Part shown: one piece after another, positions 30,403 to 51,774 of the stretch
How positions within the stretch are numbered: the first letter of the stretch is position 1
Layout of the letters: the number at the start of each line of letters is the position of its first letter
DNA from: an uncultured Rivularia sp.
GTDB lineage: Bacteria; Cyanobacteriota; Cyanobacteriia; Cyanobacteriales; Nostocaceae
DNA length: 64,000 nt
Direction of reading: 5' to 3'
Assembly (NCBI GenBank): GCA_963665115.1
Contig: OY762007.1
Span: 512,001-576,000, forward strand
Notes under the pieces: model-generated
What the model saw: the letters and a program-made list of their open reading frames with translations, nothing else
Told to the model about the DNA's origin: nothing
Databases searched by the model: none
Made by a program: the position numbers and the translations under genes

Positions 30403-30562
30403 TAATACTTTTTACTTCTTACTTTTGACTTTTTACTTCCGCGCAGCGGTACTAGTACAGTAAGGCGTAAATAAAGCACCCATTTAAAAAGTTTGAAAGC
30501 CTTATCACATAATACTTTTTACTTCTTACTTTTGACTTTTTACTTCCGCGCAGCGGTACTAG
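30403..30562. repeat. Tandem MITE-like unit; ~53 bp direct repeat ending CGCGCAGCGGTACTAG
   Basis: Identical segments at ~30403..30455 and ~30510..30562, each bounded by CTAG. Confidence 0.7.
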
Positions 30563-30712
30563 GCGCATCTTTATAACAGAAATGGTATAAGTCTTTCTTT
30601 GACAATCTGTCTTTTGACAACAGTTAATTTTTGCATTAAGAATATAAATTGCTTTTAGTACTGGATCGTTTGTGTTAAGGTTCCTATTCTTTTATCTGCG
30701 TGTAATTTTCAT

Positions 30713-33229
30713 ATGGTGTTGGAGGATACTTTGAAATTGAAACAGCTTTGGTACGCAGGAATATTAGGTATATTTTATTTAGTGCTATCTCAACCAGCTT
30801 TTGCAGAAGAAAATCGAAAACAAGAAGCTTCGGTTGAGGAAAAAACTCAGAAATCAATTTCAAATATTCGTGAAATTAAATTTGCAAAAACCAGTGCTTC
30901 TTATTTACTGACACAGGAAAATACAACTCCTGCAATTACTCAAATAACTAGTGTACGAATACAGCAAACAAGTAATGGTTTGGAAGTGATATTAGAAACT
31001 CCCCAGGGAGATTTATTATCGCCAACTACAAGAATAGAAGGCAATACTTTAATTGCAGATATTCAGAATGCAGTCTTGATACCCGATGGTAGATTTCAAG
31101 AAAATAATCCTGTAGAAGGGATTGCTTCAATAACCGTTACGCAGTTAGATAATAAAGTACAAGTACGAATAGCGGGGGTACGAACTGCACCAACTGTAAA
31201 CGTTGCTTCGGGCGATCGCCGTTTAGTTATCAGCCTAGATTCGGCTCCTAGAGCGGATATCGAACTCACTGTCACCGCACAAAAACGACCGGAAGATGCA
31301 CGGGATGTACCTCTGAGTATTACGGTAATACCCCAACAGGAAATCGAAGACGCTCAAATCGATTCTTTTCAAGATATCGCTAATAATACCCCTAATTTCA
31401 GCTTTGCTCCCACATCTTCAGGTGGTACTGAGTTCAGTAACTACAGTATGCGGGGATTAAATAATGCTAATTTTCTTACCGCTCAGGATAGCGTAGCCTT
31501 CTATATAGATGATGTTCCGGTTGATTATAACGGCTTTTTAGACTTGGCTTTGAATGATTTAGAGCGGATAGAAGTCTTGCGGGGACCTCAAAGTACTCTC
31601 TACGGTAGAAATAGTTCGGCTGGTGTAGTTAACGTCATTTCTCGTCAAGCAACTTTTGAACCAGAAGTCACATTTGGTGTCGGTTACGGAAAATATAACC
31701 ACCGCGAATTGCAATTTTCTCTTAACGATGCTTTGGTTGACGATAAATTAGCGTTACGAATAGCTGGAGCTTATAAGGGACAAGATGGATTTATTGAAAA
31801 CCTTGCCACGGGTGAAAAAATCGGCGAAAGAGCGCGATTTGCAGGCAGAGCGCAATTATTGTGGACACCGACATTAGATTGGAACGTTTCTTTTAATAGC
31901 TATAACAGTTTTACGGATGACGGAAATCCGACTTACAACAGAATTAATCCTGAAGATGCATTCGAGGTTAATTTAGAGACTGAAGGTTTCAACAAACTTA
32001 GTACAAATACCCAAGCGGTGAAAGTTGGTTATAACGGTGAGGGTTTTCGAGCAACTTCGATTACAGCACGTCGTTATAGTCGTCAAGAAAATGTAGTTCC
32101 TGGAAGCACGGGAGCGTTACAGATTCTTGATGATATTAACTCAACAACATGGACGCAGGAATTACGCTTTCAATCTCCCGAAACTTCCGAGCGTTTGCAA
32201 TGGTTGTTAGGTGGTTACTACGAATCTCGCGACTTTAAAGTTGATGATGCTCGAACCGACTTTCCCGGATTTGGCAGATTTCGCCGTTTTGGTGATGATT
32301 CTCGTACAACCTATGCGGTATTTGGGCAGGTAGATTATAAACCTATCGAACCATTAACCGTATTTGCCGGTTTGCGTTACGAAACTTCCGATGCATCTTC
32401 AGATAGTAGCTATGAATCGGTAGCTGCTGACGGTAGTTTAACTCCACTACGTCCAGAATTTACAGATGAAGAAGTTAGTAATGATGAATTAATTCCTCGC
32501 TTTGGTTTGAAATATCAACTCAATCCTAATTTAATGGCTTATACCACAATTGCCAAAGGTTATAGACCAGGTGGATTGAATTATCGTGCTAATAGCGAAG
32601 CAGAATTACGATTTGGAGAAGAAAAAACTTGGAGTTACGAAGCAGGTTTAAAATCTTCTTGGCTGGATAATCGTTTGATTGCCAACTTGTCGGTATTTCA
32701 TAACGATGTGAATGACTATCAAGTATTACAATTTGACAACACTGGATTTTTCGGAAGTGTCAGCAACATTGATGTCAAAGCCACTGGGGTTGAATTTGAA
32801 CTGAAAGCAAAACCAGCAGCAGGACTAGATTTAATTGCATCAGTTGGTTATGTAGATAGTAAATACAAAAACTATTTAAACTCAGATACTGGAGTGGATT
32901 TGAGCGACAATCAAGTTCCTTTCGTACCGCAATTTACCTATAATTTAGCGGCTCAATATCGAACAAAAGGAGGGTTATTTGCTCGTGCCGGATTGAGCGG
33001 TTATGGTATTACTTATTTTGATGACGATAATCAAATCAAGCAAGAACCATACGTTCTCGTAAATGCTCGTATCGGTTACGAAGCTGAAAAATACGGAATT
33101 TATTTATATGCAAATAACCTGTTTGATTCTCGCTACATTACTTCTGGCTTCTTATTCCCAGTACCAGACGGAACCGCAGGATTTGGAGATCCAGTTACAT
33201 ACGGAGTCCAATTTAAAGCGACTTTGTAA
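30713..33229 (+). CDS. TonB-dependent receptor with N-terminal AMIN domain
   Basis: Signal peptide, AMIN-like domain, TonB box (ELTVTAQKR), plug IEVLRGPQSTLYG, NLFD, C-terminal beta strand. Confidence 0.93.
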   Translation: MVLEDTLKLKQLWYAGILGIFYLVLSQPAFAEENRKQEASVEEKTQKSISNIREIKFAKTSASYLLTQENTTPAITQITSVRIQQTSNGLEVILETPQGDLLSPTTRIEGNTLIADIQNAVLIPDGRFQENNPVEGIASITVTQLDNKVQVRIAGVRTAPTVNVASGDRRLVISLDSAPRADIELTVTAQKRPEDARDVPLSITVIPQQEIEDAQIDSFQDIANNTPNFSFAPTSSGGTEFSNYSMRGLNNANFLTAQDSVAFYIDDVPVDYNGFLDLALNDLERIEVLRGPQSTLYGRNSSAGVVNVISRQATFEPEVTFGVGYGKYNHRELQFSLNDALVDDKLALRIAGAYKGQDGFIENLATGEKIGERARFAGRAQLLWTPTLDWNVSFNSYNSFTDDGNPTYNRINPEDAFEVNLETEGFNKLSTNTQAVKVGYNGEGFRATSITARRYSRQENVVPGSTGALQILDDINSTTWTQELRFQSPETSERLQWLLGGYYESRDFKVDDARTDFPGFGRFRRFGDDSRTTYAVFGQVDYKPIEPLTVFAGLRYETSDASSDSSYESVAADGSLTPLRPEFTDEEVSNDELIPRFGLKYQLNPNLMAYTTIAKGYRPGGLNYRANSEAELRFGEEKTWSYEAGLKSSWLDNRLIANLSVFHNDVNDYQVLQFDNTGFFGSVSNIDVKATGVEFELKAKPAAGLDLIASVGYVDSKYKNYLNSDTGVDLSDNQVPFVPQFTYNLAAQYRTKGGLFARAGLSGYGITYFDDDNQIKQEPYVLVNARIGYEAEKYGIYLYANNLFDSRYITSGFLFPVPDGTAGFGDPVTYGVQFKATL

Positions 33230-33312
33230 TTTGAATGGTTTGTTTTTCTAGAAACTGGGCGGAGACGTTATATATAACGTCTCTACAAAACGTCTTATGA
33301 ATCTATATTCTT

Positions 33313-34521
33313 ATGCTCTCTAAACTAATCCTTCTCGCCGCACTTTACACCGCTCAATTCATACCGACAACCTTTTTTATCCAAACCGTACCTATCTTTA
33401 TGCGACAGCAAAATATGTCGCTTGATGCTATAGGCTTTTTAAGTTTTCTGATTCTTCCTTCAGCATTAAAATTCCTTTGGTCGCCATTCATAGATCGTTA
33501 CCGTTTACCTAAGTTAGGACATTATCGCGGCTGGATTATTCTTTTTCAGTTGTTATTAGCACTTGTCACATTTGGATGTGCATTTATTGATATTCAAGAG
33601 AACTTCAGTACTTTAGTTATTTGTATATTCTGCGCTTTTTTGTTCTCCTCCAGTCAAGATATTGCCACCGATGCATTAGCAGTTAATTTACTCGAACCAA
33701 ACGAACGCGGAATTGGAAACGCTATTCAATCTGGGGGAAATGTTTTTGGGGCTATTATTGGCGGTGGTGGAGTATTAATTTTATTAGATAGAGTTGGCTG
33801 GAAGTACAGTTTAATCATCATGTCCGTATTGATGTTACTGACTTTGATTCCTGTTTTTTTATATAAAGAAAATAATCATAAACCCAAAACATCAAACTTA
33901 TTTAGGTCTTATTTTCAACCTTTTATTAGTTTTCTCTCTCGTCCCAAAGCATTACCTTGGCTTTTAGTGTTGGTGCTGTACATGGGAGGAGAGATGATGT
34001 CAGGAACAATGCTGCGTCCGCTTTTTGTAGATAGAGGCTTGTCGCTGTCAGAGATTGGCGTGATGTTGGGAATAGTTAGTTATAGCGTTCGTATTGCTAG
34101 CGCTTTAATTGCCGGAGTTTTGATTACTAAAATAGGAAGGATACGTTCCCTAATTCTATTTGGTTTAGCAGCAAGTATTGCAACACTTTTGTATATAATA
34201 CCCGCAAGTGGAATCAGTAATTTGCCCATCTTATACGCCGTCACAATCACAGTCAATGCATTGCAAGGAATGGCATATACCGCCTTACTTAGTGCAATGA
34301 TGGATAAATGCGATTGCCAGACAGCCGCAACAGATTATACGTTTCAAGTTTCAGTAGTGTATATTGGTGGAGTTGCTGCTTCAATGCTCAGCGGTAAGAT
34401 CGCGAGTTCTACCGGATATGTAGGTATGTTTATTATCAGTGCAGCAGTGGGTTTATTAAGCGTATTAGTGATTAGTAAAACGAGCGATCGAGTAGCGACA
34501 AATATGCAATCCCATTCTTAA
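33313..34521 (+). CDS. MFS importer of the RhtX/FptX (AmpG-like) siderophore permease family
   Basis: LY..Q.IP, LKFLWSP.IDR, SQDIATDALA, ATDYT.Q. Confidence 0.85.
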   Translation: MLSKLILLAALYTAQFIPTTFFIQTVPIFMRQQNMSLDAIGFLSFLILPSALKFLWSPFIDRYRLPKLGHYRGWIILFQLLLALVTFGCAFIDIQENFSTLVICIFCAFLFSSSQDIATDALAVNLLEPNERGIGNAIQSGGNVFGAIIGGGGVLILLDRVGWKYSLIIMSVLMLLTLIPVFLYKENNHKPKTSNLFRSYFQPFISFLSRPKALPWLLVLVLYMGGEMMSGTMLRPLFVDRGLSLSEIGVMLGIVSYSVRIASALIAGVLITKIGRIRSLILFGLAASIATLLYIIPASGISNLPILYAVTITVNALQGMAYTALLSAMMDKCDCQTAATDYTFQVSVVYIGGVAASMLSGKIASSTGYVGMFIISAAVGLLSVLVISKTSDRVATNMQSHS

Positions 34522-34553
34522 AGTTACAGTTTATCAATGTTATTTTGACGCGG

Positions 34554-35837
34554 TTAATTAATCTCACGTACTGATGGTTTTAATGCCAACAAAGTACTTG
34601 TAATTAACATAATGCTACCTGCGACAGTGAAAAGAATTGTTAAATTAAAGTTGACTAATATACCAGCCAAAGCAAAGGAAAAAGGGGCAATTCCAAAGGA
34701 AGAAAACATCCCTAAACTCATAACTCTTCCTAACATTTCAGGTGGAGTTTGTTTTTGAATCCAGGTAATTCCTACCACAGTAAACAAGCCACTGCAAAGT
34801 CCTAATATAGCAATTGTAATAGCAGCTAGTGTGATGTTTGGGATAAAGCTAAGTAGAAACAGACCAAAGCCTTGTATACTAGCAAGACTGACCATTAATA
34901 CTCCAAGTTTGGGAAGATTTCGGATAAATTGAGGTGCTAATGTCCCTAATAAACCACCAGCACCCCAAGCTGACTGCATTATCCCTAAAGCGACTGCACC
35001 GCCCTGAAAGCGACTGTGAGCTAGTGAAGTAATCCCGACTTGTAATGGACCGACAAAAAGAAAATTTAGCATTACTAATATCAGCAAAAGTACTCTGAGA
35101 GACTGGTTGCGCCATCCGTAATAGAGTCCCTCACGCATACCATTTATTAAACTAATACTTTTGTTGGTAAAAGTAGATTTTGTAGAGTTTTGATTTGATT
35201 TCCCATCTAACACTGTTGAAGAAGATCTCATCTGTTTCATCAGCAAAAGCGTTATGGTTGTGATAACGAAAGTTACTCCATCAATTGCAAATGCTGCCTG
35301 GATACCGGCAGTTGCAATCAGCAAACCACCTAAAGCAGGTCCAATCAATAGAATTATTTGGGAAGTTCCTTGGCTTAAGGTATTACTTGCTACTAACTGC
35401 TCTTTTGGTACCAATGTAGGTATAATTGATTTCGATGCTGGGATAAAAAAACCATCTAGAATTCCGAAGCTAGCAGCAAAGAAGTAAAGATGCCATAGTT
35501 GTGTGACTTTAGAAGCAACTATTACTGTAAATAAAACAATCAGTAAACCACGTAAAGCATTGGAAATCAGCATAACTAATCGTGGTGAAAAGCGATCGCT
35601 AAAAACACCACCAAACAGCATTAAAACAGCACGAGGAATTGCTGCTGCCATCAATACTGTACCCAAGCTGATACCAGAATTAGTTAACTGTATTGTTAAC
35701 CAAGGCAATGCTATTATATAGAACTGATCGCCCAAAAGTGAAACGTTTTCACCGATGTATAAGAGTAGGAAGTTACGTACAGTTAGTGGTTTCCAAAGAG
35801 GAACCCGGTGATTACTCGATATTGTTGATTTGTCCAT
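34554..35837 (-). CDS. MFS exporter (EntS/DHA3-like)
   Basis: R.F.LLY.G..VS.LGD, GGVFSDRF.PR, Q..TP.EMLGRV. Confidence 0.85.
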   Translation of the reverse strand: MDKSTISSNHRVPLWKPLTVRNFLLLYIGENVSLLGDQFYIIALPWLTIQLTNSGISLGTVLMAAAIPRAVLMLFGGVFSDRFSPRLVMLISNALRGLLIVLFTVIVASKVTQLWHLYFFAASFGILDGFFIPASKSIIPTLVPKEQLVASNTLSQGTSQIILLIGPALGGLLIATAGIQAAFAIDGVTFVITTITLLLMKQMRSSSTVLDGKSNQNSTKSTFTNKSISLINGMREGLYYGWRNQSLRVLLLILVMLNFLFVGPLQVGITSLAHSRFQGGAVALGIMQSAWGAGGLLGTLAPQFIRNLPKLGVLMVSLASIQGFGLFLLSFIPNITLAAITIAILGLCSGLFTVVGITWIQKQTPPEMLGRVMSLGMFSSFGIAPFSFALAGILVNFNLTILFTVAGSIMLITSTLLALKPSVREIN

Positions 35838-35916
35838 GCAGATTATAGATTACTCAAAATTTATTATTTATTTGTAGTAGCGCTAAGCGCTTCGGAGTGC
35901 GCTACTACTTTCATGT

Positions 35917-37495
35917 TTAATTAACGCGACGTTGGTAGCCTTGCCAATATTTTTCTCTCAGCTTGCCCTTTTGCAATTTACCAGTTGGTGTTCTTGGTAA
36001 GGATTGAGTAAATTCAACACTTCTAGGTAACTTATAATCGGCAAGTTTACCCCGGATATAACTAATAATGTCTAATGCGGTTGCTTTCATCCCTTCTTTT
36101 AAAACAACAATAGCTTTGATCGTTTCTCCAAAATCTTCATCTGGAACACCAATTACTGCAACCTCACTTACTGCTGGATGTTCGTATAAAATATTTTCAA
36201 TTTCTGCTGGATAGACATTCTCGCCAGCATAAACAATCATATCTTTAACGCGATCGCAAATGTAAATATAACCTTCTTCATCAAAATAACCAGCATCACC
36301 AGTATGAATCCAGGCATTTACTAAGGTTTTTGCTGTAGCTTCGGGTAATTTCCAATAACCAATCATATTTGCAGGGGATTTGATCCAAATTTCACCTACT
36401 GAACTGCCTGATACCTCTTTACCATTACTGTCTAAGATAGCTACTGATACACCAGGAAAAGGTTTCCCCGCAGCTTTGAGTATGTCTGTATTTGTAGATG
36501 TATGAGCATCCGCAGGTAAACAGACAGCACAATTTCCGGTTTCCGTCATCCCATATATTTGTACGAAGTTACAGTCAAATGTGGCGATCGCTTTTTTGAG
36601 TAATGATTCGGCTATGGGAGAAACCCCCGTAAATAATATATTCCAGTGATGAAAAATCTGTTTTTTGGCATAATGGTTCGCTCAACAAAACTTGAATCAT
36701 TGCTGGAACCATACAAGTCTTGGTGATGCGGTACTTTTCAATCGCTTTGAGAACTTCAAAGTCTACAAAAGTTTCTAATATAATATTGGAGGCTGCGGAT
36801 GCCAAACCGCGAATAGCCCACCATAAACCTCCGATATGGAATAAAGGTAAGGTAACTAGATTCTTGTCAGTTTCGTTCCAATTTATCCAGCTTTTATCAA
36901 GTTTCGCAAATTCATTGGCGATGGCAAAAAAACTATAATGTCCTAGTTGGACACCTTTAGGTCGTCCTGTAGTGCCACTAGTATACATTTGTACGGCTAC
37001 ATCATTTTCGTCAACAGCAACATTGGGTGGTTCGTCACTATATTCGTGGCACCATTTATCATAAATGGGCCAATTACGGTCAGTTTTTTCTAAAGCAATA
37101 ATAGTTTTAACATCATCAATTTCGTTTTTAATTGATTCTACTAATTGATAAAAATCAGATCCGACAAAAAGAATTTCAACATTAGCATCGCTTAGAATAT
37201 AGCTCACTTCAGCAGCAGCTAAACGCCAATTAATTGGTACTAAAACAGCATTTATTTTGCAACAAGCAAATAAGATTTCATAACTTTTAAGTGAATCTTT
37301 AGCTAAAAGTGCCACTCGCGCACCTGGTTTAATTCCGACAGCTAAAAGTGAATTTGCGATTTTATTACTTCGTTGTTCTAATTGTGAATAAGTAAGTGCA
37401 TTATCTTTGAATATTAATGCTTTCGCATCTGGAAATTGACGCGCTTGTACCTGTGGTAAATCTGCTAATGTGAGAATTTTATTGTTATATATCAT
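35917..37495 (-). CDS. Acyl-CoA/acyl-ACP ligase (FadD-like), split by a +1 frameshift near 36622
   Basis: YTSGTTGRPKG in 36575..37495; YGMTET, HTGDAG, DRVKDMI, TGKLQK in 35917..36549; YGG|SP junction has one extra T. Confidence 0.88.
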
Positions 37496-40400
37496 AGATG
37501 TTAATTGTTTCAAGAGATTTTTGTAATTCTTGAGCAAGAGTTTGAATGTGTGGAGGGCGGACTATACTAAAGTGATTACCATCTAAAGTTTTCGTGAAAG
37601 TGGCTGCCGTAGTATATTTACTCCAGTCGGTATGAGGTAATATTTGATCTTGCCAATCTGAAGCCCACCAAACGTGCAGCGGTGCTTCAATTTGGGGAGA
37701 ACGGTGAACTTGAAGAATTCGGTCGTGAATTTCGGTGATATTTAATTGTTTTTCTAGGATATCGATAGAAATATCTGTGGGAAATAAGTTTCGTTTTTGT
37801 CCCCAATCCATTATAAATTGCAGGCGTTGGCGAGAAGATAAATTGATGAGTTTTTCTCGCAGTTGTTGCTGTTCGACTGCATCAAGAGCCATAAAAGCAT
37901 CAAAGAAAGTACCGCCAAATACTAACGATACATCGATGAGGGGGTCACGTTTAAGTTGTGATGCATTATTTGAGATGAATTCGGACATCAAAAAGGAATC
38001 CACTAGCCCCACAAAAGCTACTTTGTGTCCTTGTTTTTCTAACTCTTTGGCAACAGTTACGGCAATTACTCCACCCATAGACCAACCCATAAGATAATAA
38101 GGGCTATGGGGTTGATGCTGATAAATAGCTCTATAGTATTGGGCAGCCATCTCATCAATGCTTTTATGCTCTTGTTCCGGCTGATTGAGAGCGCGAGACT
38201 CTATTCCAATAATTGGTCTATCTGCTCCCAAACAAGCTGCCAAATGCTGATACACCATCACTTGTCCCCCGGCTGGATGAATGCAGAATAAGGGGGGCTG
38301 AGTACCTTGAGTTTGGATTGGAACTAAGTATGTGGAAGTTAATGAATCAGCAGAATTTTTGGCAATCTTAGCAGCAAGCTCTGCCACGGTTGGATATTGG
38401 AAAATTTTACTCAAAGATATATTTGTCTCAAGTTTCTGATTGATTTTTGAAACTAATTGAAGTGCCAAAAACGAATGTCCACCCAACTCAAAAAAGTTAT
38501 CATGGATGCCTATCTGCTCAAATTTAAATTCTTCAGTCCAGGTTTCAATTAATAATTCTTCAATAGAGTTGCGAGGAGGTACAAAAGTTTTTTCTAATTC
38601 TGGCTTGATGCGATTAGGTAAGGGAAGCGTGCGACGATCTATTTTGCCGTTAGATGTCAGGGGTAAAGATTCTAACAGCATGAAAGTAGAAGGAACCATG
38701 TAATTAGGTAGTTTTGCTTCTAGATAATTACGTATTTCGCTGAAATTTGGGCTAATATTTTGTTGCAGATTTTTAACTATATAACCGATAAGGGATTTAT
38801 TTCCTCGTTCTTCTACGACAGCATTTACCACAGCTTGTTTAATAGCGGGATGTTGTTTTAATGTCGCTTCAATCTCTCCCAATTCAATCCGATAACCATT
38901 AATTTTCACCTGAAAATCGGAACGTCCCAAAAATTCAATATCTCCACTCGGTAAATATCTTCCTAAATCCCCGGTTTTATATAATCTTTCCCCAGTTACC
39001 GGATGATTAATGAAGCCTTCTTTTGTCTTTTCATCATCTCCCCAATAACCCAATGCCAATCCAATCCCACCAATATAAAGTTGTCCCACAACCCATATCG
39101 GAGTTGGTTGCATTAACTCATTCAACACATAAAACTGTTGATTCGTCAGAGGTTTACCGTAAGGAATACTTTTCTCGCTAGGATCGACGGTAGTGATGGG
39201 ATAGAAAATCGACCAAATCGAAGCTTCCGTTGCTCCCCCCAAACTAACAATTTCAATATCCGAACAATAACTTTGAATTTGAAGCGGTAAATTTAAAGGC
39301 AACCAATCTCCACTCAACAAAGCCAAACGTAATGGTAATGCTGTTATTGCTGGCTGTGAGGATAAGTATTCTACCAACATTTGCATCAAAGCCGGAACTG
39401 AGTTCCAGATAGTTATCCGTTGCTTAACTATTAACTCATGCCAGCAAGCAGGATCTTTTACTGCATCTTGTGGTGGAATAACTATGGTTGCCCCAGCTGC
39501 GAGAATACCGAAGATATCGTATACTGATAAGTCAAAATTTAATGCTGATAGAGCTAAAAGGCGATCGCCATTTCCAATTCCAAACCGCTGATTAATATCA
39601 ACAATTGTATTCACCGCACCTCGATGATCGATCGCAACTCCTTTTGGTAATCCTGTGGAACCTGATGTATAAATTACGTAGGCTAGATTTTCGATATTTT
39701 GATCTTTTAAAGACGTTACATCTAAAGTCTCTACATCATCATCGCTAATACATACAGTCTGCACACCTGGAGGTAAAGAAAGATTGTTTTCAAGGTGTGG
39801 TTGAATAACAACTAATTGAACTTTCCCTTGTTCGAGTAAATACCACTGTCTTTCTTGCGGTAAATTTGGATCGATTGGCAGATATGCCGCTCCAGACATT
39901 AAAATTCCTAGTACAGCTACAACTTGTTCCCAACCTTTCTCCATAACTACAGCAACTAAAGTATTGGGGATTGCTCCCAACTGTTGTAATTTAGCTGCTA
40001 ATGTAGATGCCTTTTGATATATTTCCCTATAAGTAAAATTCCTCTCGCTGGTAATTACTGCTAATTCTTCGGGTTGTACTTTGACTTGCTCAATAAACAA
40101 ACCGTGCAAAGTTTGCTCGCAAATTGGAGCGCTAGTGTTATTAACTTGATGGCGTTGAGATAATTGAGCTTGTGGTAATAATTGTTGATGTGCTTCAACC
40201 CAAGCTGATTCGGAAGTTGCTAATCGTTGGAGTAAATTGCAGTAAGCCGCAAACATATCATCGATCAAACCTTCTGGGAAGAGTTTCTTCCACCACATCC
40301 CAATTAAAGATTAATGCTCCTTTTTGTTCGGTAACTTGATGATCCAGCAAAACTTGGGGGGTTTGACTGATACCATAAATCACTTCTCCCAAAAAATTGA

Positions 40401-41712
40401 ATTCTAAATCTCCCTTAGTAAAAGAGTTTAAACCTAAAACACTGCTAAAAACTATGGGCATAACTGCAGTTAACCCGGTTTTCTGACGACGAGCTAATTC
40501 CCGCAATAACTCCACTCCACTAACATGAAGATGCTCTAAGTCTTGTAGCAATTGCTGTTGTAGTTTCTGAGCGCGACTAGTAAATGTTGCTTGCCTTGAA
40601 TTGTCTACTGCTAATAGAGTTGTATTGGTAAAATCTCCAACAACTCGATCTATTTCAGGGTGAAGAGGAAGACGCTCGAGTACAGTCAGATTAAGAGTAA
40701 ATCGAGGATTTTTGCTCCACAACCTTAAAACTTCAGCAAAAGCAGCCAGCAATACCATAGAAGGAGTCAAACCAGCATTTTTCCCTCGCTGTTTCAATTG
40801 CTGCCAAATATTTGGTTCAAGTTGAGCAGCGTAACGTTTAAATCGATAATCTTTTAACTCGCTGGGAAAATAAATCAGAGGTAATTCTGGTGCTGGGGGT
40901 AAATCATCTAAACGGCTTAACCAGTAATTTTGCGATCGCTTGACTAATTCAGAATCTTGCAAGCCTTGCTTATTAATTACATAGTCGCGGAAAGAGATTT
41001 GCGGTAATGGCAAGCATATTTGTGGATTATGATAAAATTGGTTCCACTCCTCAAATAGAATACGAATACTCCCAGCATCCGCCATCAATAAATCTAGATT
41101 GATGTGAATTCGCACACGCCCCTCGTCTAAATAAGTGGCTCGAATATTGAACCAAGGCCACTCCTGTGGTGGTAACATTTGATGGGATAATTGTTCCCGA
41201 ATAGCTTGAAGCTGAGCCTTTACTTCAATATTTTTCAGTCCTCGCAGATCTAAGATTGAGATTTCATAGGGTGGAACTTTTTCTAAAACTTTTTGCTCTC
41301 CTGTAGGTAGCACTACAGCACGCATCATCTCGTGGCGATCGATTAATTTCTGCCAAGCTGTTGAAAGCCTTGACAAATCTAAATTGGTAGCTTCAAATTC
41401 CAGATAATGATGATTTGCTACATTACCTAACTCAAATACCTCACTGCGCCCCAACCAATGGGCTTGCTGAATATCAGTAAGAGGAAAAGGTTCATATTTT
41501 TTACTACTATCCGGCTCGATTGCTGGTAGAGAATCAGTATTTATCTCAGTTTGACTAAGCAAACGTATAATATCTAATTTATGCTCTACTAAGGAATTTC
41601 TTAACTCTGAACTCAAAACTCCTTTTGGTGCTTCAATAATTAATCGTTCGTTTTTAACTGATAATTTAATTTCTCGCTGTTCTAGTTGTTTTAAAAGTTC
41701 ATTTCTATTCAT
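37485..41712 (-). CDS. NRPS: docking domain-Cy-A(Cys)-T-TE, split by a +1 frameshift near 40285
   Basis: PFPLTDIQQA.W.GR, DLLMAD (Cy DxxxxD), SQTPQV.LD; A-domain code DLYNLSLIWK; GGHS; TE GWSMG. Confidence 0.9.
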
Positions 41713-44700
41713 AATTCGATTATTTCTGTATCATCATTAGATTCAATAGATAAAGGCGATGACTTAATTTTTGCGATGGTTAATTGCTCCTCTACAGCTA
41801 CAGCTAATTCTGCAATATTCGTTGCTTCGACTAATAACTGTTTCATGGAAATATTGACTCCAAGTTGAGTTTGTAACTTATTTCTCAACTGCACTAATTT
41901 CAATGAATCCATGCCCAATTGAAAGAAATTATTATCGATTCCCACAGCATCTATCTGGAGAAGTTCTTGCACAATTTCGGCTAAAGATCTCTCCATTTCA
42001 GTTCTTGGAGGTGTTAGAACTGTTTCATATTTAGATTTGAGTATATCGGGGCTGGGTAACTTCTTACGGTCTACTTTTCCATTCGCAGTTAAAGGCAAAG
42101 CATCTAAGATAATATACTCAGAAGGCACCATATATCTTGGTAGCTTCTGTTGTAAGTACTCCCGTAGCTGTACAGAAATTGATTGTGAATCCCGATCTTT
42201 TTTAGAATTTAACCACTGTTTAGTTTGAGCTAAATCGATTTTGCCACCTACAAAGCTATAAAGTAAAACCTGACTTGATTCCAGTTTAAATATATCTTGT
42301 ATTTTGCTCAATTCCAAATAGCCAATAGGACATAATCCTATTTCCTGTTCTGGCGCAGATTTCATTAATAATTGACCGATATGACCTGCTTCTAAAAGAC
42401 AAAATTCTTTTGCTAATTCTCCATAAATTGGGGTAATGGCGCTTAGTTCTCCAATTAAAAATAGGGAAAAAGCACCATTATCAAAAATTGGTTGATTACC
42501 ACGATAAATACTATTATCAATTTCGCTGCCACTACTAACTAATATTAAACGATGGTCGGCAGGATTGTAATAGTATATTCCTGCTTCCAAACCTTCTATT
42601 CGGTTGGGTTTAATTAATAAGTAAGTTTGTACGGGATAAAGACTACCAGCGGAAGGGTAAAGATATTTTGGTAGAGGATAATCCTCCAGTTTCATCTGTT
42701 GTAAGCAACTTAAAAACTTGCTTAATTGTGTTAACGAAATAGGTTGGGGTAGAAATTGTCGATAACTTTGACGTTCTAAGTAAGCTTGGGTAACGTCTTC
42801 ATCAGACTCAGTTTGGGGCAATTGTACGCTATGTTGAGAAGATTCTAACTGTCGCAATCCTGGTTGTTTGAGCTTAAATTCAATCCGTTCTATAGGATCT
42901 TGTATTACTCCTTCTTGTTGAGCAGGCTGGTAAGCTTCTGCGGGATTTTGAGTAGAGGGATTATCGCCAACAATATAAGCTACAAGTTGCTGTTTATTTT
43001 GTGATTCTCCCACTGCAATCACCACAGCTTGTTTAATTCCAGAATGCTGTTTTAATGTCGCTTCAATCTCTCCCAATTCAATCCGATAACCATTAATTTT
43101 CACCTGAAAATCGGAACGTCCCAAAAACTCAATATTCCCGTCAGGTAAATATCTTCCCAAATCCCCAGTTTTATATAATCTTTCCCCAGTTACCGGATGA
43201 TTAATAAAGCCTTCTTTTGTCTTTTTCAAATCTTCCCAATAACCCAAGGCTAATCCAATTCCCCCAATATAAAGTTCTCCCACAACCCATAATGGAGTCG
43301 GTTGCATTAATTCATTCAACACATAAAACTGTTGATTCGTCAGAGGTTTACCATAAGGAATACTTTTCTCGCTAGGATCGACGGTAGTGATGGGATAGAA
43401 AATCGACCAAATCGAAGCTTCCGTTGCTCCCCCCAAACTAACGATTTGAATATCCGAACACTTTGCTTGAATTTGAAGCGGTAAATTTAAAGGCAACCAA
43501 TCTCCACTCAACAAAGCCAAACGTAATGGTAATGGTGTTATTGCTGGCTGTGAGGATAAATATTCTACCAACATTTGCATCAAAGCCGGAACTGAGTTCC
43601 AAATACTTACCCCGCACTTAACTATTAACTCATGCCAGCAAGCAGGATCTTTTACTGCATCTTGTGGTGGAATAACTATGGTTCCCCCAGCCGCAAGAAT
43701 ACCAAAGATATCGTATACTGATAAGTCAAAATTTAATGCTGATAGAGCTAAAAGGCGATCGCCATTTCCAATTCCAAACCGCTGATTAATATCAACAATT
43801 GTATTCACCGCACCTCGATGATCGATCGCAACTCCTTTTGGTAATCCTGTGGAACCTGATGTATAAATTACGTAGGCTAGATTTTCGATATTTTGATCTT
43901 TTAGAGACGTTACATCTAAAGTCTCTACATCATCATCGCTAATACATACAGTCTGCACACCTGGAGGTAAAGAAAAATTGCTTTCAAGGTGTCGTTGAGT
44001 AACAACTAATTGAACTTTCCCTTGTTCGAGTAAATACCACTGTCTTTCTTGCGGTAAATTTGGATCGATTGGCAGATATGCCGCTCCAGACATTAAAATT
44101 CCGAGTACCCCTACAACTTGCTCCCAACCTTTTTCCATGACTACAGCAACTAAATTGTTGGGAGTTGCTCCCAACTGTTGTAACTTCGCTGCTAATCCAG
44201 ATGCAAATTGATATATTTCCTTATAAGTAAAATTCCTCTCGCTGGTAATGACTGCTATTTGTTCGGGTTGTACTTTCACTTGCTCAATAAACAAACCGTG
44301 CAAAGTTTGCTCGCAAATTGGAGCGCTAGTATTATTAACCTCATGGCGTTGAGATAATTGAGCTTGTGGTAATAATTGTTGATGTGCTTCAACCCAAGCT
44401 GATTCGGAAGTTGCTAGACGCTCTAGTAAATCGCAATAAGCCGCAAACATATCATCAATCAGACCTTGTGGGAAGAGTTCTTCCACCCCATCCCAATTAA
44501 ATATCAATGCTCCTTTTTTCTCTCTGACTTGATGATCCAGCCAAACTTGGGGCGTTTGACTAATACTGTAAACTTCTTCTCCCAAACGATCTAACATCCA
44601 TATTTCTTCACCGAGCGAGTCCAAACCGAGGGTGCTGGTAAAAACTATTGGTACAATCTGATAGCTTTCTCGCCGACGATTTAATTCTCGTTGAACCTTT

Positions 44701-47700
44701 ACCGCACTAATATAACCGCGATCTAAATCTTGCCATAGTTGCTGCTGTAATTTTTGAGCGCGGTTGGCAAATGTATTAGGAACTGAGTTATCAACTTCCA
44801 GAAGTGTTAGAGAGGTGAAGTCGCCAACTAAATCGTTGACTTGGGGGTGCAGGGATAAACGATTAAAAAGAGTCAAATTAATCGTAAATTTCTGACTTTT
44901 GCTCCAAATACCAAGAATTTGGGCGAAAGCAGCTAATAAAACCCCACTAGGAGTTAAATTAAATTTATTTCCCCAATCTTTCAATTGTTGCCATTCACTT
45001 GGGGATAGTTTGGCGTTGCGACGTTTAAATTTAGGCTTGGTAATAGAACCTGGATTCTTGGCTAAGGGTAATTCTGGTGCTGAGGGTAGAGTTTCTAATC
45101 GGTTAAACCAATACTCCTGAGAACGTTGATATTGTGGTGTATTTGATAAAGTTAACTCCGCGAAAACATAATCTCGAAATGAAAGTTCTAGTGGGGGTAA
45201 TACAACATCGGGATTCTCGTAAAGTTTTGCCCACTCTCGCCCCAGGACAAACATACTCCAGGCATCAGCTATCAGTGCATCGAAGCTGAGATGAAGTCGG
45301 ATATGTACCTGATCCAAACGAGTAGCTCGGATTTCAAACAACGGAAAGCTATCTGCTGTTAATACCTCATGAGACATACGTTCGCGGATAGATTCGAGCT
45401 TTGCGTTAACTGCTTCGTCAGATTCTCCGCACAAGTCCAAAAGCTCAATATCGTAGGAGGGAACTTGTTCTAGAATTTGCTGCTGACCATCTGGTAAGAT
45501 TACAGTTCTGAGCATCTCATGGCGGTCAATTAATTTCTGCCATGCCTGATTTAACCTTTGCAGATTTAAGTTTTTACTTTCTAACTCTATATAACCGTGA
45601 GCAGCAATATTACCTAGTTCAAAGGCTTCATTACGACCTAGCCAGTAAGCTTGTTGAATATCGGTGAGAGGGAAGGGCTGATACCGTTGCTCGGGAGCAG
45701 GTACAATTGTCGGCAAAGGAACCAACATTTCAGATGAAGATTCACCTTGACGCAAAGAAGCAAGATTTTGGGTAAGTTCGGCAACGGTGGGAGATTCCAA
45801 CAAAGAGCGTAAGGGAAACTCAACATTAAAAGTTTGCTGTAATCGAGAAACTACTTGAGTCGCGAGCAGTGAATGTCCTCCCAATTCAAAAAAGTTATCG
45901 TGAATCCCCACTCGTTGCAGTTTCAGTACCGAGGTAAAAATATCAGCAATTGCTGCTTCGGTAGATGTGCGGGGTGCAACAAATTCTACTTGTCGATTTT
46001 GCTCTACATCCGGTGTGGGTAAAGCGCGACGATCTATTTTACCATTAGGGTTTAAAGGTAAAGCTTCTAAAATGACAAAAGCAGACGGCACCATATAATC
46101 GGGCAACTTCTGCCTGATTAAATCACGCAATTCCTTAGTGCTTAAAGATTCTTGGCGAGCAACAATATAGGCAGCTAAATACTTATTATCTACTTGTTCT
46201 TCTCGAACAATTACCACCACTTCTTGTACTTGAGGATGGGTAATCAGAACCGCTTCAATTTCCCCTAACTCGATGCGGAAGCCACGAATTTTAACTTGAT
46301 TGTCAATTCTACCCAAAAACTCAATGTTTCCATCAGGTAAATACCGAGCTAAATCTCCAGTTTTATAAAGTTGTTCTTGTTTTACTCCCCTATTTGCAAA
46401 GGGGCTGGAGATGAATTTCTGCTTAGTTAAATCTGGACGATTAAAGTAGCATTGCGCCAAACCAATACCACCAACGTGCAGTTCTCCCGGAACCCCAATA
46501 GGAACTGCTTGGAGATGACTGTCTAAGATATAAACTTGTGTATTATTAAAAGGATGTCCAATGGGCACTAGCCCATCAACAGATAAATTGACATTCGTAC
46601 TTTCAAAATAGGTACTGTCAATAGTGGCTTCACTCAGCCCATAGGAATTAATTAAGCGAGTATTAGAATCGCAAAAACGCTTCCATTCTTGATATTCTTT
46701 TACATATAAACTATCCGAACCTACCACCAACAACCGCATAAAGTGAAGATTTTGGTTGGTTCTTTTCAGATATTGCACCAAATTCCTCAAAACAGGTGGA
46801 ACAAACTCCGCGCAATCAATCTTCTCTTCGCGCATCAAGTTATACAGCTTTTCCGGTTCTAAAAGCCACTCACGGGGACATAAAACTAACTTACCCCCAG
46901 AGCAAAGAGCGCGAATGAAATCCCCAGAAAACACATCAAAAGAGAAACTAGCCATTTGTAAATGACTGGTGAGGGAATTAAGCTGATATGCATCTTCCCA
47001 AGCCCAATATGCATTAACTAAACTACGATGGGCGATCGCAACTCCTTTAGATCTACCTGTAGAGCCTGATGTGTATACTACATAGGCTAAATTTTCTGAC
47101 GTGGCACTGTGAACTAAATTTGTTTCACTTTCCTGACTAATAACTTGCCAATCTTTGTCCAAACAAACCACAGGTATATCTTGCTCGGGAAGAATTTCTA
47201 GCAGTTTTTCTTGAGTCAACAATACCGATACCTGTGAATCACCAAGCATGAAATTCAAGCGCTCTTGAGGCAATCGCGGATCTAAAGCTACATAAGCTCC
47301 ACCAGCTTTAAGAATTCCTAAATTACCTACAACCATTTCCAGGGAAACGCTCCACATAAATTCCCACTAGCACATCTGGCTTTACTCCCAATGAATGCAA
47401 GTAGCGTGCTAATTGATTAGCTCGTTCGTTTAACTCTTGGTAAGTCAGTTGTTTGTCTTGAAACGATACAGCTACTGCATTTGGTGTTTTATTCGCCCTA
47501 TCTTCAAATAACTGATGAATGCACAAACAGGGGGGATATTCTACTTGGTTATTATTCCACTCTCTCAATAAATTCTCTTCGACATCCGATAGCATTGGTA
47601 ATAAACCAATCTCCTTCTGTGGGTTGTTGACAATTCCCTCAAGTAAAGTCTGAAAATTGTCCGCCATTCGCTTGATAGTCGTTTCATCAAATAAATCAGT

Positions 47701-49113
47701 GCTGTACCTGAAAATACCAATTAAGGATTCTCTTGTCTCGACAATATCCAATACTAAATCGTTTTGTCCTTCCTGTTGCGGTATCACAAAAGGTTCTAAA
47801 GTCAAACCTCCCCAACTTTCTGCAACTGTTGTTTTATTAGACACAGATAATTCATATTCCGGTGCCATTTCCTGAAGTTGCAACATATTAAACGAAGCAC
47901 GGAAAAGCCCAAGAAGACTGGGGTCGCGGTTTAACTGTAATCGCTCGATTAATAATGGAGTTGGATAATCTTGATGGGTGAGTGCTGCTAATACCGATTG
48001 ACGCACTTGAGACAAAAGCTCAGAAAAGGTAGGATTGCCAGCAAAATTTACTCGCAGAGCCAGCATATTAACGAAAAAGCCTACAGTATGGGCGAATTCA
48101 GCCTTACTTCTCCCCTCCGTAGGAGAGCCAACAACGATATCTTCCTGCCCCGTGTAGCGATGAACCAGTACTTGAAAAGCTGCCAGCAGGGTCATGTAAA
48201 GGGTTGCTCCCTCCCCTCTTCCTATTTCCTTAAGCTTATGGGCTAATTCTTTAGTTAGTTCAAAACTATAACAAGCTCCTTGATAATTCTGCACTGGCAT
48301 TCGCGGGCGATCCGTAGGCATATTTAGTACTGGTAACTCCCCAGCAAACTGTTTCTGCCAATATGCCCAATTATTATCCCCCACAGGACTTTTGAGCATT
48401 TTATCTTGCCATTGCACAAAGTCCTTATACGAGTGCTTAATAGGAGCTAGAGATACTGAAGAACCATGACTTTCCGCCTCGTAGAGCAAACGCAACTCAT
48501 CTAAAATAATCCCAAATGAAAAACCATCTACCGCAATGTGATGTATCGTCAGTAATAACACATAGTCTTGTAGAGAGCGAGTAAATAGATCTACTCGGAT
48601 TACACAACCTCGTTGCAAATCAAAAGGACGCTTATATGCAGCGATCGCCCTTTCGATCAATTCCGAATCATCCCAATTTGAAGCGTCAGTAGTTTCAATA
48701 GAGAATTCCTGGTATTCGTGAACTACTTGAAAAGGTTCAGCATCTCCTTGAGCAAACGTAGTACGTAGTGTGGGATGACGAGCTATTAATGCCTGCAAAG
48801 CCCGTTCCAAAGCCGGAACATTTAAACGGGAACGGATGCGAACTGTAAAAGCAATATTATATGCAGCGCTTGATGGTGCAAGTTTATATAGAAACCATAA
48901 ACCTTGCTGACCGTAACTAAGAGGATAGGATCTAGAACTATAAAAATCGGATCTCAATAAATGAATAATTTCTGTCTTATGCTGCTTAATTTTATTTAAT
49001 AGTGTGGAAGTTAATGCTTCTTTAGGACCCCGATAACGCAGCTTATCATTCTCTACCCACAATTCCACATTCTGCTGTGATAGGTCTTTAATAAAATCAG
49101 CTAAATTATTCAT
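41709..49113 (-). CDS. NRPS: docking domain-C-A(Orn/Lys-like)-T-Cy-A(Cys, embedded FMN oxidase)-T, split by a +1 frameshift near 47346
   Basis: HHIAVDG, A1 code ~DVGEVGSIDK, GGHSL, DALIAD, A2 code DLYNLSLIWK, R.S.R.F / PSAG.LYP oxidase insert, GMDSL. Confidence 0.9.
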
Positions 49114-49532
49114 ATTTCTCCGTCAATCCAATCATCATCATCATTTATTGCTTTGGAGTTGAGGTTTTCCTTATCTTGAGAGAGAGCATTTTCTATCTGC
49201 TCATCCACTAGCATTACCAAATTAGCAACAGTAAAGTCGTCTAGGAATTTCACCGCAGCCAAGTCCACCAACCAATCGGTTCTCACTTTATTCCTCAGTT
49301 TTACAGCAATCAGAGAGTCAATTCCTAAATACTTGATAGACTGCTGCATATCTAATTCAGATGGGCTTATACCTATAGCTTTAGCAATCTCAAGACGCAT
49401 ATAAGCTCCTAAGAATTCTTGACGCTCGCTTGTAGTGAATTCAGCCCATCTTTCTAAAAATTCATAGGGTTTTACTACAGTGTGTTCTAATTCTTCTTGT
49501 GATTCAATTTCACCAATTAATTTGGAATGCAT
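49110..49532 (-). CDS. Stand-alone acyl carrier protein with acidic C-terminal docking tail
   Basis: LGIDSL phosphopantetheine motif; ends DDDDWIDGEI. Confidence 0.85.
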   Translation of the reverse strand: MHSKLIGEIESQEELEHTVVKPYEFLERWAEFTTSERQEFLGAYMRLEIAKAIGISPSELDMQQSIKYLGIDSLIAVKLRNKVRTDWLVDLAAVKFLDDFTVANLVMLVDEQIENALSQDKENLNSKAINDDDDWIDGEI

Positions 49533-49567
49533 GGGAAAAATTATAGTTTTAAAATGAACCCTAAAGC

Positions 49568-50164
49568 TTAAGTTAATACAGATTTGTGACCATTATTAAT
49601 AGTTTTTTCATTCTCGCTATTTAAGATAGCGATGGTAACATCACCTTCAGACCAACCACCATTATCATCATAAAATGCACAGGAAGTTTTCAACATAATT
49701 AAATCCCCACGAGCAGATACTTTATTTATTGATAAAGCTCCTTGAAAATGATTAGAATTTATTGGCTTTTTAAAAGCGCTAGAAAATTTAACAATCAGAA
49801 AATCACTCAGATGACGAAATTCATAGGTTTCTAAACTCCAATTTTTCATCACCTCCAACAAATCATTTTGTACTAAATAAGCAATTATTATATAGAACAA
49901 TTGGTTGTAACAAATATTGAATTCTACTGAATTAAAATGACCAGTATCATCAATATAGCAAGATTCTGAAATTGAAAAGTCAGCTTTTATAAACCATAGA
50001 CTCCGAACATCACTTTTATTTTTATCAATCAAATCACTTTGTATTGGATATTGAAATTGAGCTTTTTTTAGATACTTACAACTCTCCTTATAAGGCTTAA
50101 GAAAAGTATCCAATAAATCCTGATTAACATCATCAACCTTGATATATTCCTGATTGATATTCAT
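49568..50164 (-). CDS. FcoT/ScoD-like thioesterase
   Basis: L.PYK..C.YLK and SCYIDDTGHFN.VEFNICYNQ signature of the FcoT family. Confidence 0.88.
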   Translation of the reverse strand: MNINQEYIKVDDVNQDLLDTFLKPYKESCKYLKKAQFQYPIQSDLIDKNKSDVRSLWFIKADFSISESCYIDDTGHFNSVEFNICYNQLFYIIIAYLVQNDLLEVMKNWSLETYEFRHLSDFLIVKFSSAFKKPINSNHFQGALSINKVSARGDLIMLKTSCAFYDDNGGWSEGDVTIAILNSENEKTINNGHKSVLT

Positions 50165-50274
50165 AGTTTTTGCTCAGTGGATTAGATGATAACTACAATC
50201 AAATAAATAAACCACAGAACTGTAACCTCTGTGATTCTTCAATTTGATTGTTAATTTGCATGTAAAAGTAATAT

Positions 50275-51171
50275 TTACTTGACAAGCATTCTTGACTGTT
50301 TTTCCACACTCTCAGAGGAAACATAAAATGGTAAGCCATCGTAAATACCGATGCGATAGCTGACACTTTTCTCACCTGTTGGCACTGTAGAAGCCATATG
50401 ATTTAAACTTCTGTTCTCCCATAAGAGAATATCTCCGTCTCTCCATGTATGGGTATGAATATGCTCATCACGTTCAATAAATGCAAATAGTTCGGGCAAA
50501 ACTTTTTGATTTGTTTCACGATCAACATTCACAATACCAGTGGTAAAACCTTGGCTCATGTACAATATTTTTTCATTAGTAACGGGATGGGTAATTACAG
50601 ATGGGTGTGTTACAGATGGAAATTTATTTTCAAAATCATTCATAATATCGATGACTGCTCTATCAATATCACACTCTTGGACTTTATAACGCCATTTAGC
50701 CTCATGACGTAAATATTTTCCATCAACATACATTTTTAAATTTGCAGGCAATTTTTTATAAACCTGCTGCATATCTATGTAATAAGTTTCTCTAATCGAA
50801 TGAGGTAAAACTTGCGGGTATAACATCGTAAATGGCAAGGGTTCATTAAGAAATGCACAGTCAGTATGCCAATATCTGCCAGTACCCTTAACTCCAAATT
50901 TCTTCCCATCTTTCGGAACATTAGAAGATACAAATATTTCTGGATAATCTGGGTGATGATAATTATCTTGAGGGTAAATTTGTGGAACTCCAATTTTGCT
51001 CGCAAATTCTAAGTATTGGTCTTCATTAATATTTTGGTTTCTGAAAACCACTAATTTATGTTCGTATACAAGTTGCTTAATTATATTGATTTGTTCTTTA
51101 GCAATTGAAACAACGTCTATGTCTAAAATCTCTGCACCAATAAATTCCAAAGGAGGTCTATTAATCTTCAT
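50275..51171 (-). CDS. ScoE-like Fe(II)/2-oxoglutarate dioxygenase (putative isonitrile synthase, TauD superfamily)
   Basis: Y.HP..PEIFVSSNVP..GK..GV..TG.YWH.D, YPQV.P, TY.IDM, THP.T.E..LY.S.GFT, W.NRSL.H, VSYR, collinear with ScoE as I recall it; the ORF could extend to TTG 51240. Confidence 0.85.
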   Translation of the reverse strand: MKINRPPLEFIGAEILDIDVVSIAKEQINIIKQLVYEHKLVVFRNQNINEDQYLEFASKIGVPQIYPQDNYHHPDYPEIFVSSNVPKDGKKFGVKGTGRYWHTDCAFLNEPLPFTMLYPQVLPHSIRETYYIDMQQVYKKLPANLKMYVDGKYLRHEAKWRYKVQECDIDRAVIDIMNDFENKFPSVTHPSVITHPVTNEKILYMSQGFTTGIVNVDRETNQKVLPELFAFIERDEHIHTHTWRDGDILLWENRSLNHMASTVPTGEKSVSYRIGIYDGLPFYVSSESVEKQSRMLVK

Positions 51172-51774
51172 TGTTTTTTGTATGCTTATTTTATTGGAAC
51201 TTGCCTTCTCTACATCTGTTCCTTGTTTTTTGTTCTGCAATTCTGCTCAAATAATTGACAATCCTCTTACAAAGTAAAGTAGATGAGAATGGTATAAAAA
51301 ACCATTTATATTACCTACTATGGATATATTCAAAACTCACGATGTTGAATATTTATGATTCATTGAGACTATAACCTAAAATCTATTCCTAGCAAAAAGT
51401 AACAAATAGTACATATTAGTTTTTACTATTATTGACTATTTTTCTTCACAGGAATAAAAAGTAGCTATTTATACTATTTCTTTAAATTAAATGTTTTCAG
51501 TGCTTATAATGAATTGCTTTCAGTGCTTATATAGATAGAAAAACGATCGAAGCAATAGTCTAAAATAATACTAATTATTTAAAATGAATTTGTTGGTAAT
51601 CAATTTACTGTATTTTTATTTAAGTAAGCAGAATAATTCTGATGTTTGATAAGTTGTCAAACTAATCTCAAATGCTTATTAATTAAGGACTTTTAAAGCA
51701 GAGCGACTAACCGTTCTAAATCATAAGAATAATTAATCAAAAGTAAGTTAATAAAAATTATGATATTTGGATCA

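Follow-up and report, generated by a model that had tools for sequence, protein, structure and literature searches.

A putative PetR-controlled isonitrile-thiazole chalkophore pathway in Rivularia and related cyanobacteria

Gene organization of the locus

The window analyzed here is the whole 64,000-nucleotide stretch of contig OY762007.1 from an uncultured Rivularia sp. (assembly GCA_963665115.1), and it contains, between secA and trmJ, a predicted locus for a chalkophore, a chelator that would be made, exported and re-imported to supply the cell with copper. A run of genes on the minus strand encodes a dioxygenase, an FcoT thioesterase, an acyl carrier protein (ACP), two nonribosomal peptide synthetases (NRPS1 and NRPS2), an acyl ligase and an MFS_3 transporter, and it converges with plus-strand genes for a TonB-dependent receptor and an AmpG/RhtX-like MFS protein. 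All of the genes named in the initial annotation were found, with the content, order and orientation given there, and because the arrangement recurs, with variations, across related loci it is not a product of chance.

The ScoE-like Fe(II)/2-oxoglutarate enzyme (50275-51171, minus, 298 amino acids) is assigned by sequence and fold to a sister clade of ScoE, referred to below as clade II. The adjacent gene (49568-50164, minus) encodes an FcoT/ScoD-like thioesterase expected to add glycine; it matches PF10862 with 190 bits (3e-56), and its core ESCYIDDTGH-N-VE-NICYNQ aligns with 5wsy and Rv0098, while its NCBIfam ScoD score of 153.5 falls below the cut-off of 250. The ACP (49110-49532, minus), with a GIDS motif, would take the role of ScoB, and in several relatives it is fused with NRPS1 into a single protein. 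Pfam domains give NRPS1 (41709-49113, minus) the order docking, condensation (C), ornithine-type adenylation (A), thiolation (T), heterocyclization (Cy), cysteine-type A, oxidase (Ox) and T, and NRPS2 (37485-41712, minus) the order docking, Cy, cysteine-type A, T and thioesterase (TE). These are followed by the acyl-ACP ligase (35917-37495, minus), also identified by Pfam, which would act as ScoC. Together the Fe/2-oxoglutarate oxidase, FcoT thioesterase, acyl-ACP ligase, ACP and NRPS make up the five conserved genes that define isonitrile lipopeptide (INLP) clusters (bioRxiv 121228), so that the proposal of a complete Sco-type cassette holds.

Transport would be provided by three proteins. 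The MFS_3 protein (34554-35837, minus) is EntS-like by Pfam and NCBIfam and is a predicted exporter. The TonB-dependent receptor (30713-33229, plus), with an AMIN-plug-barrel architecture in Pfam, is the predicted importer of the metal complex; its best PDB match is the pesticin receptor 4epa at E 1e-42, followed by a second-best match at 6e-23. The AmpG/RhtX-like protein (33313-34521, plus) is the predicted inner-membrane importer. Its membership of the MFS agrees with the earlier description, but the RhtX/FptX label given to it then does not reach the model's threshold: it scores 195 bits against a cut-off of 356 for that model and 229 against 350 for AmpG.

The assembly line and its predicted product

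Motif inspection showed the catalytic motifs of both synthetases to be intact, and NRPS2 carries DLLMADAGS, GGHS and GWSMG. The A-domain codes, read from positions anchored on motifs, are DVGEVGSID for the first module and DLYNLSLIW for each of the other two, and they are conserved among relatives; supplement 5 of PMC4558948 gives these codes as Orn 100% and Cys 100%. The first module is therefore predicted to load ornithine, the kind of diamine scaffold on which diisonitrile chalkophores are built. The starter C domain has the motif HHIAVDG, and the pairing of a starter C domain with a lysine- or ornithine-type A domain that marks INLP synthetases is predicted here as well. Cy domains with DxxxxD motifs stand beside cysteine-specific A domains, as in the yersiniabactin and pyochelin type, and NRPS2 ends in a thioesterase rather than in the terminal reductase domain of INLP synthetases.

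These features predict an isocyanoacyl-ornithine-thiazole-thiazoline acid. In ScoA and MmaA the acylation of both amines is the work of a single C domain (bioRxiv 121228), and for this reason the predicted form is the di(3-isocyanobutanoyl)-ornithine-thiazole-thiazoline acid, with a computed composition of C21H26N6O4S2 and MH+ of 491.153; the mono-acylated form would give 396.116. Both the number of acyl arms and the chain length we infer: the P1-P3 positions of the dioxygenase are Q/G/F in the window against E/G/F in short-chain ScoE (comparison from PMC11811631), and a short chain is suggested because F239 is kept.

The two cysteine A domains (38775-39692 and 42969-43886) are near-identical in stretches and lie at an offset of 4194 bp. 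Forms with one Cy domain, at loci L001 and L003 (L and G codes denote related loci and genomes, G000 being the host genome, a single contig of 8.69 Mb), would fit recombination between such repeats.

A dioxygenase from a sister clade of ScoE

The dioxygenase finds its best PDB match in ScoE (E 2e-69, against 1e-26 for TauD), with bit scores of 237 for ScoE, 153 for Rv0097/MmaE and 97 for TauD. Its structural model (pLDDT 93.7) is likewise closest to ScoE, at a TM-score of 0.89-0.90 compared with 0.78-0.80 for TauD, and sequence scores, tree and fold match together rule out an ordinary taurine dioxygenase. The iron triad H132/D134/H295, the substrate residues Y96, Y101, R157, K193 and R310, and also D198, G238 and F239 are kept in 201/201 clade-II proteins, which come from cyanobacteria, myxobacteria, Acidobacteria and Planctomycetes. 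The dioxygenase gene also adjoins the FcoT gene, and co-occurrence of a dioxygenase with PF10862 is taken as the mark of isonitrilases by Hostetler 2025 (PMC11811631), where 365 clusters including those of AecA and AmcA are considered; no cyanobacteria are named in its text or supplement text as accessible, and its network figure may hold such nodes.

Several observations weigh against an isonitrile-forming role. The score against the ScoE model of NCBIfam (NF049937) is 274.5, below the cut-off of 400. R195 is missing from 201/201 clade-II proteins, being Q in the window, and H299 from 120/120 (the first 120 of them), being T in the window; R195Q and H299Q variants of ScoE give no product (PMC7949033), and in Rv0097 the residue H264 is critical, shielding the intermediate between the two half-reactions (PMC12946266). 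A 40-row tree, built without a TauD outgroup and without AecA and AmcA, separates clade II from canonical ScoE at 100/100, and a search for an experimentally tested clade-II member found none. The initial annotation had read the enzyme as part of a Sco-type cassette; its closest relationship is indeed to ScoE, but its position is that of a sister group. The combination of isonitrile and thiazole/thiazoline ligands claimed at the same time is supported for the heterocycles by codes and domains, while the isonitrile chemistry is something we only infer, because the enzyme lies in a sister clade and two residues on which ScoE depends are missing from it.

An alternative built on these losses is a copper-regulated system in which clade II performs different chemistry, for example a single oxidation to an imine that hydrolyzes to a 3-amino acid, or N-formyl formation, so that the donors to copper would be heterocycles together with amines or amides, with no isonitrile involved. 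FcoT-like enzymes also supply beta-amino-acid starters, which would suit such a route, as would the absence of R195 and H299 throughout the clade, the protective role of H264 in Rv0097 and the low NCBIfam score. The ligands of iron and substrate are nevertheless invariant, and R195 may have a substitute in an Arg that is specific to the clade (199/201 proteins), located at ScoE position 191 and accompanied by an acidic residue at 187. At least seven loci, moreover, serve the same NRPS with canonical ScoE. We regard this alternative as unlikely, and favor isonitrile formation by clade II.

Relatives with canonical ScoE

The loci in question (L053, L054, G543, G584, G544, G445 and G557) encode synthetases 66-74% identical to those of the window, paired with canonical enzymes that retain Y97 and R195. 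H299 is retained in G544, as it is in G450 and G418, and the L053 dioxygenase exceeds the NCBIfam ScoE cut-off (436.8 vs 400). The starter C domains of the canonical-type loci nest among those of clade-II clusters, as sister to L012 (35 rows, FastTree support 0.999). Since the synthetase is shared and the C domains are nested in this way, the two dioxygenase types appear to be interchangeable, and the simplest reading is that one enzyme pair took the place of the other while the assembly line stayed as it was.

One canonical-ScoE version (L080) is located on a 250-kb plasmid of Halotia branconii (NZ_CP124544.1, 65782-88579), with cobW nearby and with an IS701 element interrupting NRPS2. This plasmid copy shows that the cluster is mobile.

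The PetR box and probable copper control

Copper is needed by cyanobacteria for plastocyanin and respiratory oxidases. A PetR activator-type box, TTTGAC-N5-GTC-N-TTTGAC, lies at 30598-30618 on the plus strand, 115 bp before the receptor start, and is the sole perfect site of its kind in the 8.69-Mb genome, with a chance expectation in the window of 0.01. Its second repeat forms the -35 hexamer of a sigma-70-like promoter (30614-30643, plus) that agrees with the consensus at 10/12 positions, a match that taken alone is weak (3 sites vs 1.3 expected). This corresponds to the activated petJ type of PetR site, in which the core GAC-N5-GTC is set within TTTGAC-N9-TTTGAC at the -35 position, and PetR accumulates when copper is exhausted (bioRxiv 10.1101/2020.07.31.226407). 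The host genome also has petR-petP, together with petE preceded by the GACA-N3-TGTC form (GACA-TAT-TGTC), and when one mismatch is allowed with the core intact it yields two sites, one before petJ and one before a gene for a 155-amino-acid protein. A perfect 53-bp direct repeat (30403-30455 and 30510-30562) lies between secA and the receptor promoter.

The box is conserved beyond the window. Upstream regions of related loci have TTTGACAnnyGTCnTTTGAC in common, and with up to 2 mismatches allowed in these counts a box stands at a cluster gene in 25/35 other loci, comprising 22/23 of those with a receptor and 3/12 of those without. The DNA examined, 922 kb including the window and 3 non-cyanobacterial loci, holds 40 sites, compared with 25 in the entire 8.69-Mb genome, and a scan of 10 genomes gave 1-6 sites each (43 in total, 15 of them at cluster genes) against 2 matches for the reversed-pattern control. 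The box directly precedes the dioxygenase gene in L003, L010, L012, L016, L018, L019, L020, L023 and L026, and a co-oriented run of receptor, RhtX and ScoE genes in L004, L006, L007, L008, L009 and L011, while among further regions a perfect box occurs in 6/6 of the canonical type with a receptor. Because a PetR box precedes the receptor and is conserved there, the system is better explained as copper-starvation uptake than as uptake of iron or zinc. The metal, which had been left open as copper, zinc or iron, is thus most likely copper.

This evidence has its counterweights. The 10 scanned genomes were picked from loci with a known box, the box was first noticed in the same loci (its definition coming from the published work), and the related genomes are not independent of one another. 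In the window and in L001 the intact box is confined to the receptor. Before the biosynthetic operon there is a broken half site, which in the window is a degenerate and doubtful PetR-like match at 51640-51660 (minus) that has lost the core GTC. With this half site alone, co-induction of synthesis is less certain in the window strain than in relatives whose box stands before scoE or before the receptor-RhtX-scoE run. The operon is also preceded by a weak Fur-like site (51923-51941, plus, some 750 bp upstream of the dioxygenase gene), likewise doubtful, with 4 mismatches to a 19-nucleotide consensus; it was equalled in 5/200 simulations and is missing in L001. As conserved regulators Fur and Zur are unsupported, the best matches to their consensus boxes before the receptor having 8 and 5 mismatches, respectively, and the Fur-like sites showing no conservation.

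Some of this could be read as a system in which PetR governs only a receptor for recycling or pirating, the product being an isonitrile-thiazole compound with antimicrobial or copper-withholding action, or else a metallophore of broad Fe/Zn/Cu range. The missing intact box and the weak Fur-like site of the window operon fit such a reading, as does the lack of a receptor in the fetched DNA of 12/35 loci. So does the resemblance of the window receptor to the pesticin receptor, whose ligand is yersiniabactin. There is also a precedent in SF2768, which acts as an antibiotic as well as a chalkophore (PMC13500777). In many relatives, however, the box lies directly before the dioxygenase gene or the receptor-RhtX-ScoE run, and Fur-like sites with up to 4 mismatches were found in only 3/39 scoE upstream regions, which makes this reading quite unlikely and leaves copper acquisition as the preferred function.

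Two further boxes lie elsewhere in the host genome. A near-perfect activator box precedes an operon (G000:C1:8175800-8179075; L056:2262-4994, minus) that encodes the 155-amino-acid protein, which contains histidines and is matched by neither Pfam nor NCBIfam models, a DsbD_2/ferric-reductase-like membrane protein and a 193-amino-acid protein, possibly forming a second copper-uptake operon. A PetR-like box with 2 mismatches lies approximately 220 bp before a LysM-lysozyme gene (G000:C1:4964851; L057:1472-2131, minus).

Integrity of the biosynthetic genes

Three frameshifts were initially overlooked: one surplus base each breaks NRPS1 (at 47345), NRPS2 (40284) and the ligase (36621). Four sequencing runs from one study (X1-X4) bear on these sites. 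Contigs from X1 and X3 are without the surplus base at 3/3 sites and otherwise match the window, with 0 further differences along these long contigs, and X4, which represents a slightly diverged strain, is likewise without it at 3/3 sites. The resulting read-throughs contain no stop codons and, aligned with intact relatives over the whole length, are 61-79% identical to them, the ligase being 77-79% identical to intact 525-amino-acid relatives. With the extra bases absent from 3/4 runs, assembly error is favored, and the three frameshifts are probably of this kind.

Run X2 leaves some doubt, as it matches the window and carries all three frameshifts, and in the closest relative, L001, the cluster is broken and shortened. 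It is conceivable on these grounds, and from the lack of an intact box on the operon, that the biosynthetic genes are true pseudogenes here and that the PetR-controlled receptor alone survives to import chelators made by neighbors, but this is very unlikely given that every one of the breaks comes from one extra base that X1, X3 and X4 lack, and that the read-throughs are full length.

Proposed pathway

Taking the pathway to be functional, the ligase would load a short 2-enoic acid onto the ACP, FcoT would add glycine and release a carboxymethylamino acid, and the Fe/2-oxoglutarate enzyme would convert this into a 3-isocyano acid that would return to the ACP. The synthetase's one C domain would then attach the acyl group to ornithine, probably to each of its two amines as ScoA does, after which two Cy-A(Cys) modules would install the heterocycles, Ox would oxidize the first to a thiazole and the TE would release the acid. 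Once exported by the MFS_3 protein the chelator would bind copper through its isonitriles, with the heterocycle tail probably acting as a handle for the FyuA-like receptor and possibly adding donors, and the RhtX-like MFS protein would carry the complex to the cytoplasm. PetR would be likely to switch the system on once copper runs out.

We consider it probable, from gene content and regulatory sequence, that the locus represents a conserved PetR-induced pathway of this type, in which an isonitrile-thiazole chalkophore is made, exported and re-imported. The wider proposal is held with less assurance, though on balance we still incline towards it: that PetR-induced diisonitrile-thiazole chalkophores form a family spanning the phylum, and that with it comes a second, mechanistically distinct isonitrile-forming clade, which lacks R195 and H299 and which cyanobacteria have in common with myxobacteria, Acidobacteria and Planctomycetes. 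If true, cyanobacteria gain a dedicated high-affinity route of copper uptake, and the PetR regulon widens from a protein switch to copper scavenging. The words "chalkophore" and "TonB" are absent from the accessible text of a 2025 review of cyanobacterial copper uptake (PMC12292863), and a peptide-metallophore atlas (PMC12971057) makes no mention, in the part accessible, of an isonitrile-heterocycle ligand type. The system would add this ligand type, and it would offer mechanistic studies a divergent clade of isonitrilases. The proposal is directly testable, as the cluster predicts a molecule (MH+ 491.153, tetrazine-reactive), an inducing condition (copper depletion) and named strains.

Comparison with known systems

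The locus shares with ScoA-E, SfaA-E (SF2768), MmaA-E and Rv0097-0101 the Fe/2-oxoglutarate enzyme, FcoT, ACP, ligase and an NRPS whose one starter C domain comes with an A domain for a diamino acid, and with INLP chalkophores an MFS exporter; the known systems chelate copper (PMC13500777, PMC13674278). It differs from INLP systems in its cyanobacterial host, its two cysteine heterocyclization modules with an oxidase, its PetR box, its divergent dioxygenase, its TE in place of reductase release, and its TonB receptor and MFS protein in place of an ABC importer. Cy-A(Cys) modules, a thiazole-thiazoline unit, a TonB receptor and MFS transporters are held in common with yersiniabactin and pyochelin, and with lusichelins and leptochelins, and lusichelins bind iron and copper, with a yield that rises under copper limitation (PMC12210259). 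Unlike the yersiniabactin/pyochelin type, the cluster has a predicted isocyanoacyl-ornithine starter, with neither an aryl starter nor an AraC regulator; a search for a salicylate synthase or aryl starter among the ORFs of 25118-60713, leaving aside the rest of the genome, found none. The proposed hybrid of a Sco-type cassette, a cysteine-heterocyclizing NRPS and Gram-negative uptake machinery is supported by domains, A-domain codes and conservation.

The regulatory element resembles the PetR/PetP switch of Synechocystis (petJ, petE and slr0601-0602), where GAC-N5-GTC lies within TTTGAC-N9-TTTGAC and overlaps the -35 element. The PetR regulon described there comprises four genes that swap electron carriers, none of them for biosynthesis or uptake (bioRxiv 10.1101/2020.07.31.226407, in the text accessible).

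The claim of novelty needs qualification. No description of the product was found in the literature searched, but the cluster was tabulated as an orphan in 2015 by Micallef et al. (PMC4558948, additional file 5, rows 456-462), under the locus tags IC523, PCC9339DRAFT and, in part, YYIDRAFT. That orphan shares an AS ligase, a secretion-effector MFS protein, a "taurine catabolism dioxygenase", a DUF2662 protein and an ACP, and its synthetases are C-A-PCP-Cy-A-PCP (Orn, Cys) and Cy-A-PCP-TE (Cys), where PCP is the peptidyl carrier domain. The listing, in the part of the file accessible, gives no product, isonitrile reading, receptor or regulation, and it is older than the discovery of ScoE. Clusters 6-9, which the main text of that paper links to taurine dioxygenases, were considered and are different clusters, the match being further down the same file. 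A literature search, with most subscription papers and MIBiG outside its scope, turned up neither a ScoE system in cyanobacteria nor an uptake cluster under PetR control. DUF2662 we take to be FcoT. The hybrid system is real and conserved, is apparently uncharacterized, and is best read as a new form of isonitrile chalkophore.

Distribution and variants

Scanning GTDB genomes yielded 34 loci, of which 31 are cyanobacterial or cyanobacteria-like and 3 from other phyla; L013 was counted among the former because it is close to Nostoc loci, despite being labelled otherwise. Cy modules are present in 17/35 loci besides the window, and a receptor in the fetched DNA of 14 of these 17. The remaining diversity includes one-Cy forms, an extra first module, ornithine-only C-A-T-TE synthetases, an Orn-Tyr form joined to a polyketide synthase (PKS) and other PKS-linked forms. 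FcoT exceeds the cut-off in 41/301 genomes of the host family, with matches in 25/68 genera, which rules out a single rare locus and makes the system a widespread one; strains found to have the cluster include Scytonema sp. HK-05, Aetokthonos hydrillicola and Anabaena cylindrica UHCC 0172. In a phylum-wide sample the dioxygenase was found in 5/401 genomes, all of the host family, so that either prevalence outside the family is low or relatives were missed by the query. From the FcoT matches 14 extra regions were drawn, of which 4 coincide with earlier loci, 1 is a weak lone FcoT and 1 is scattered.

Genes for clade-II ScoE and FcoT adjoin reducing PKS genes at L027:2932-11743, L044 and L033:10001-19801 (cyanobacteria and one myxobacterium), and these loci are candidate sources of isonitrile polyketides. 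The mirabilene isonitriles of Scytonema may offer a parallel here. A Nostoc-type variant (L014+L047, L030+L050) has an Orn-Tyr/Phe NRPS followed by KS-AT-KR-ACP-TE, and its receptor is different (29% identical), yet the PetR box is kept. In the host genome a stand-alone paralogue of the receptor, 67% identical (G000:C1:4120314-4122560; L060:10314-12560), has neither cluster nor box and possibly imports related chelators.

Other features of the window

The window also contains psb28, which, like petE and petJ elsewhere in the genome, points to a cyanobacterial host, and a diheme cytochrome c ORF (25118-25612) that spans 84/116 profile positions and may be another frameshift. Two TnpB genes of the IS200/IS605 family lie at 14766-16685 and 25685-26851, one of them with a Y1 transposase, and near them are an integrase-like gene (11926-13464) and a ParA-like gene (17116-17715). 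Beyond the putative chalkophore genes, 56832-63419 is likely to be a bacteriocin-type export locus, with a C39-peptidase ABC transporter and HlyD; it holds three similar tandem ORFs for 64-amino-acid hydrophobic peptides (61529-61723, 61820-62014 and 62190-62384) and a 108-amino-acid ORF with a double-glycine-like leader (63093-63419).

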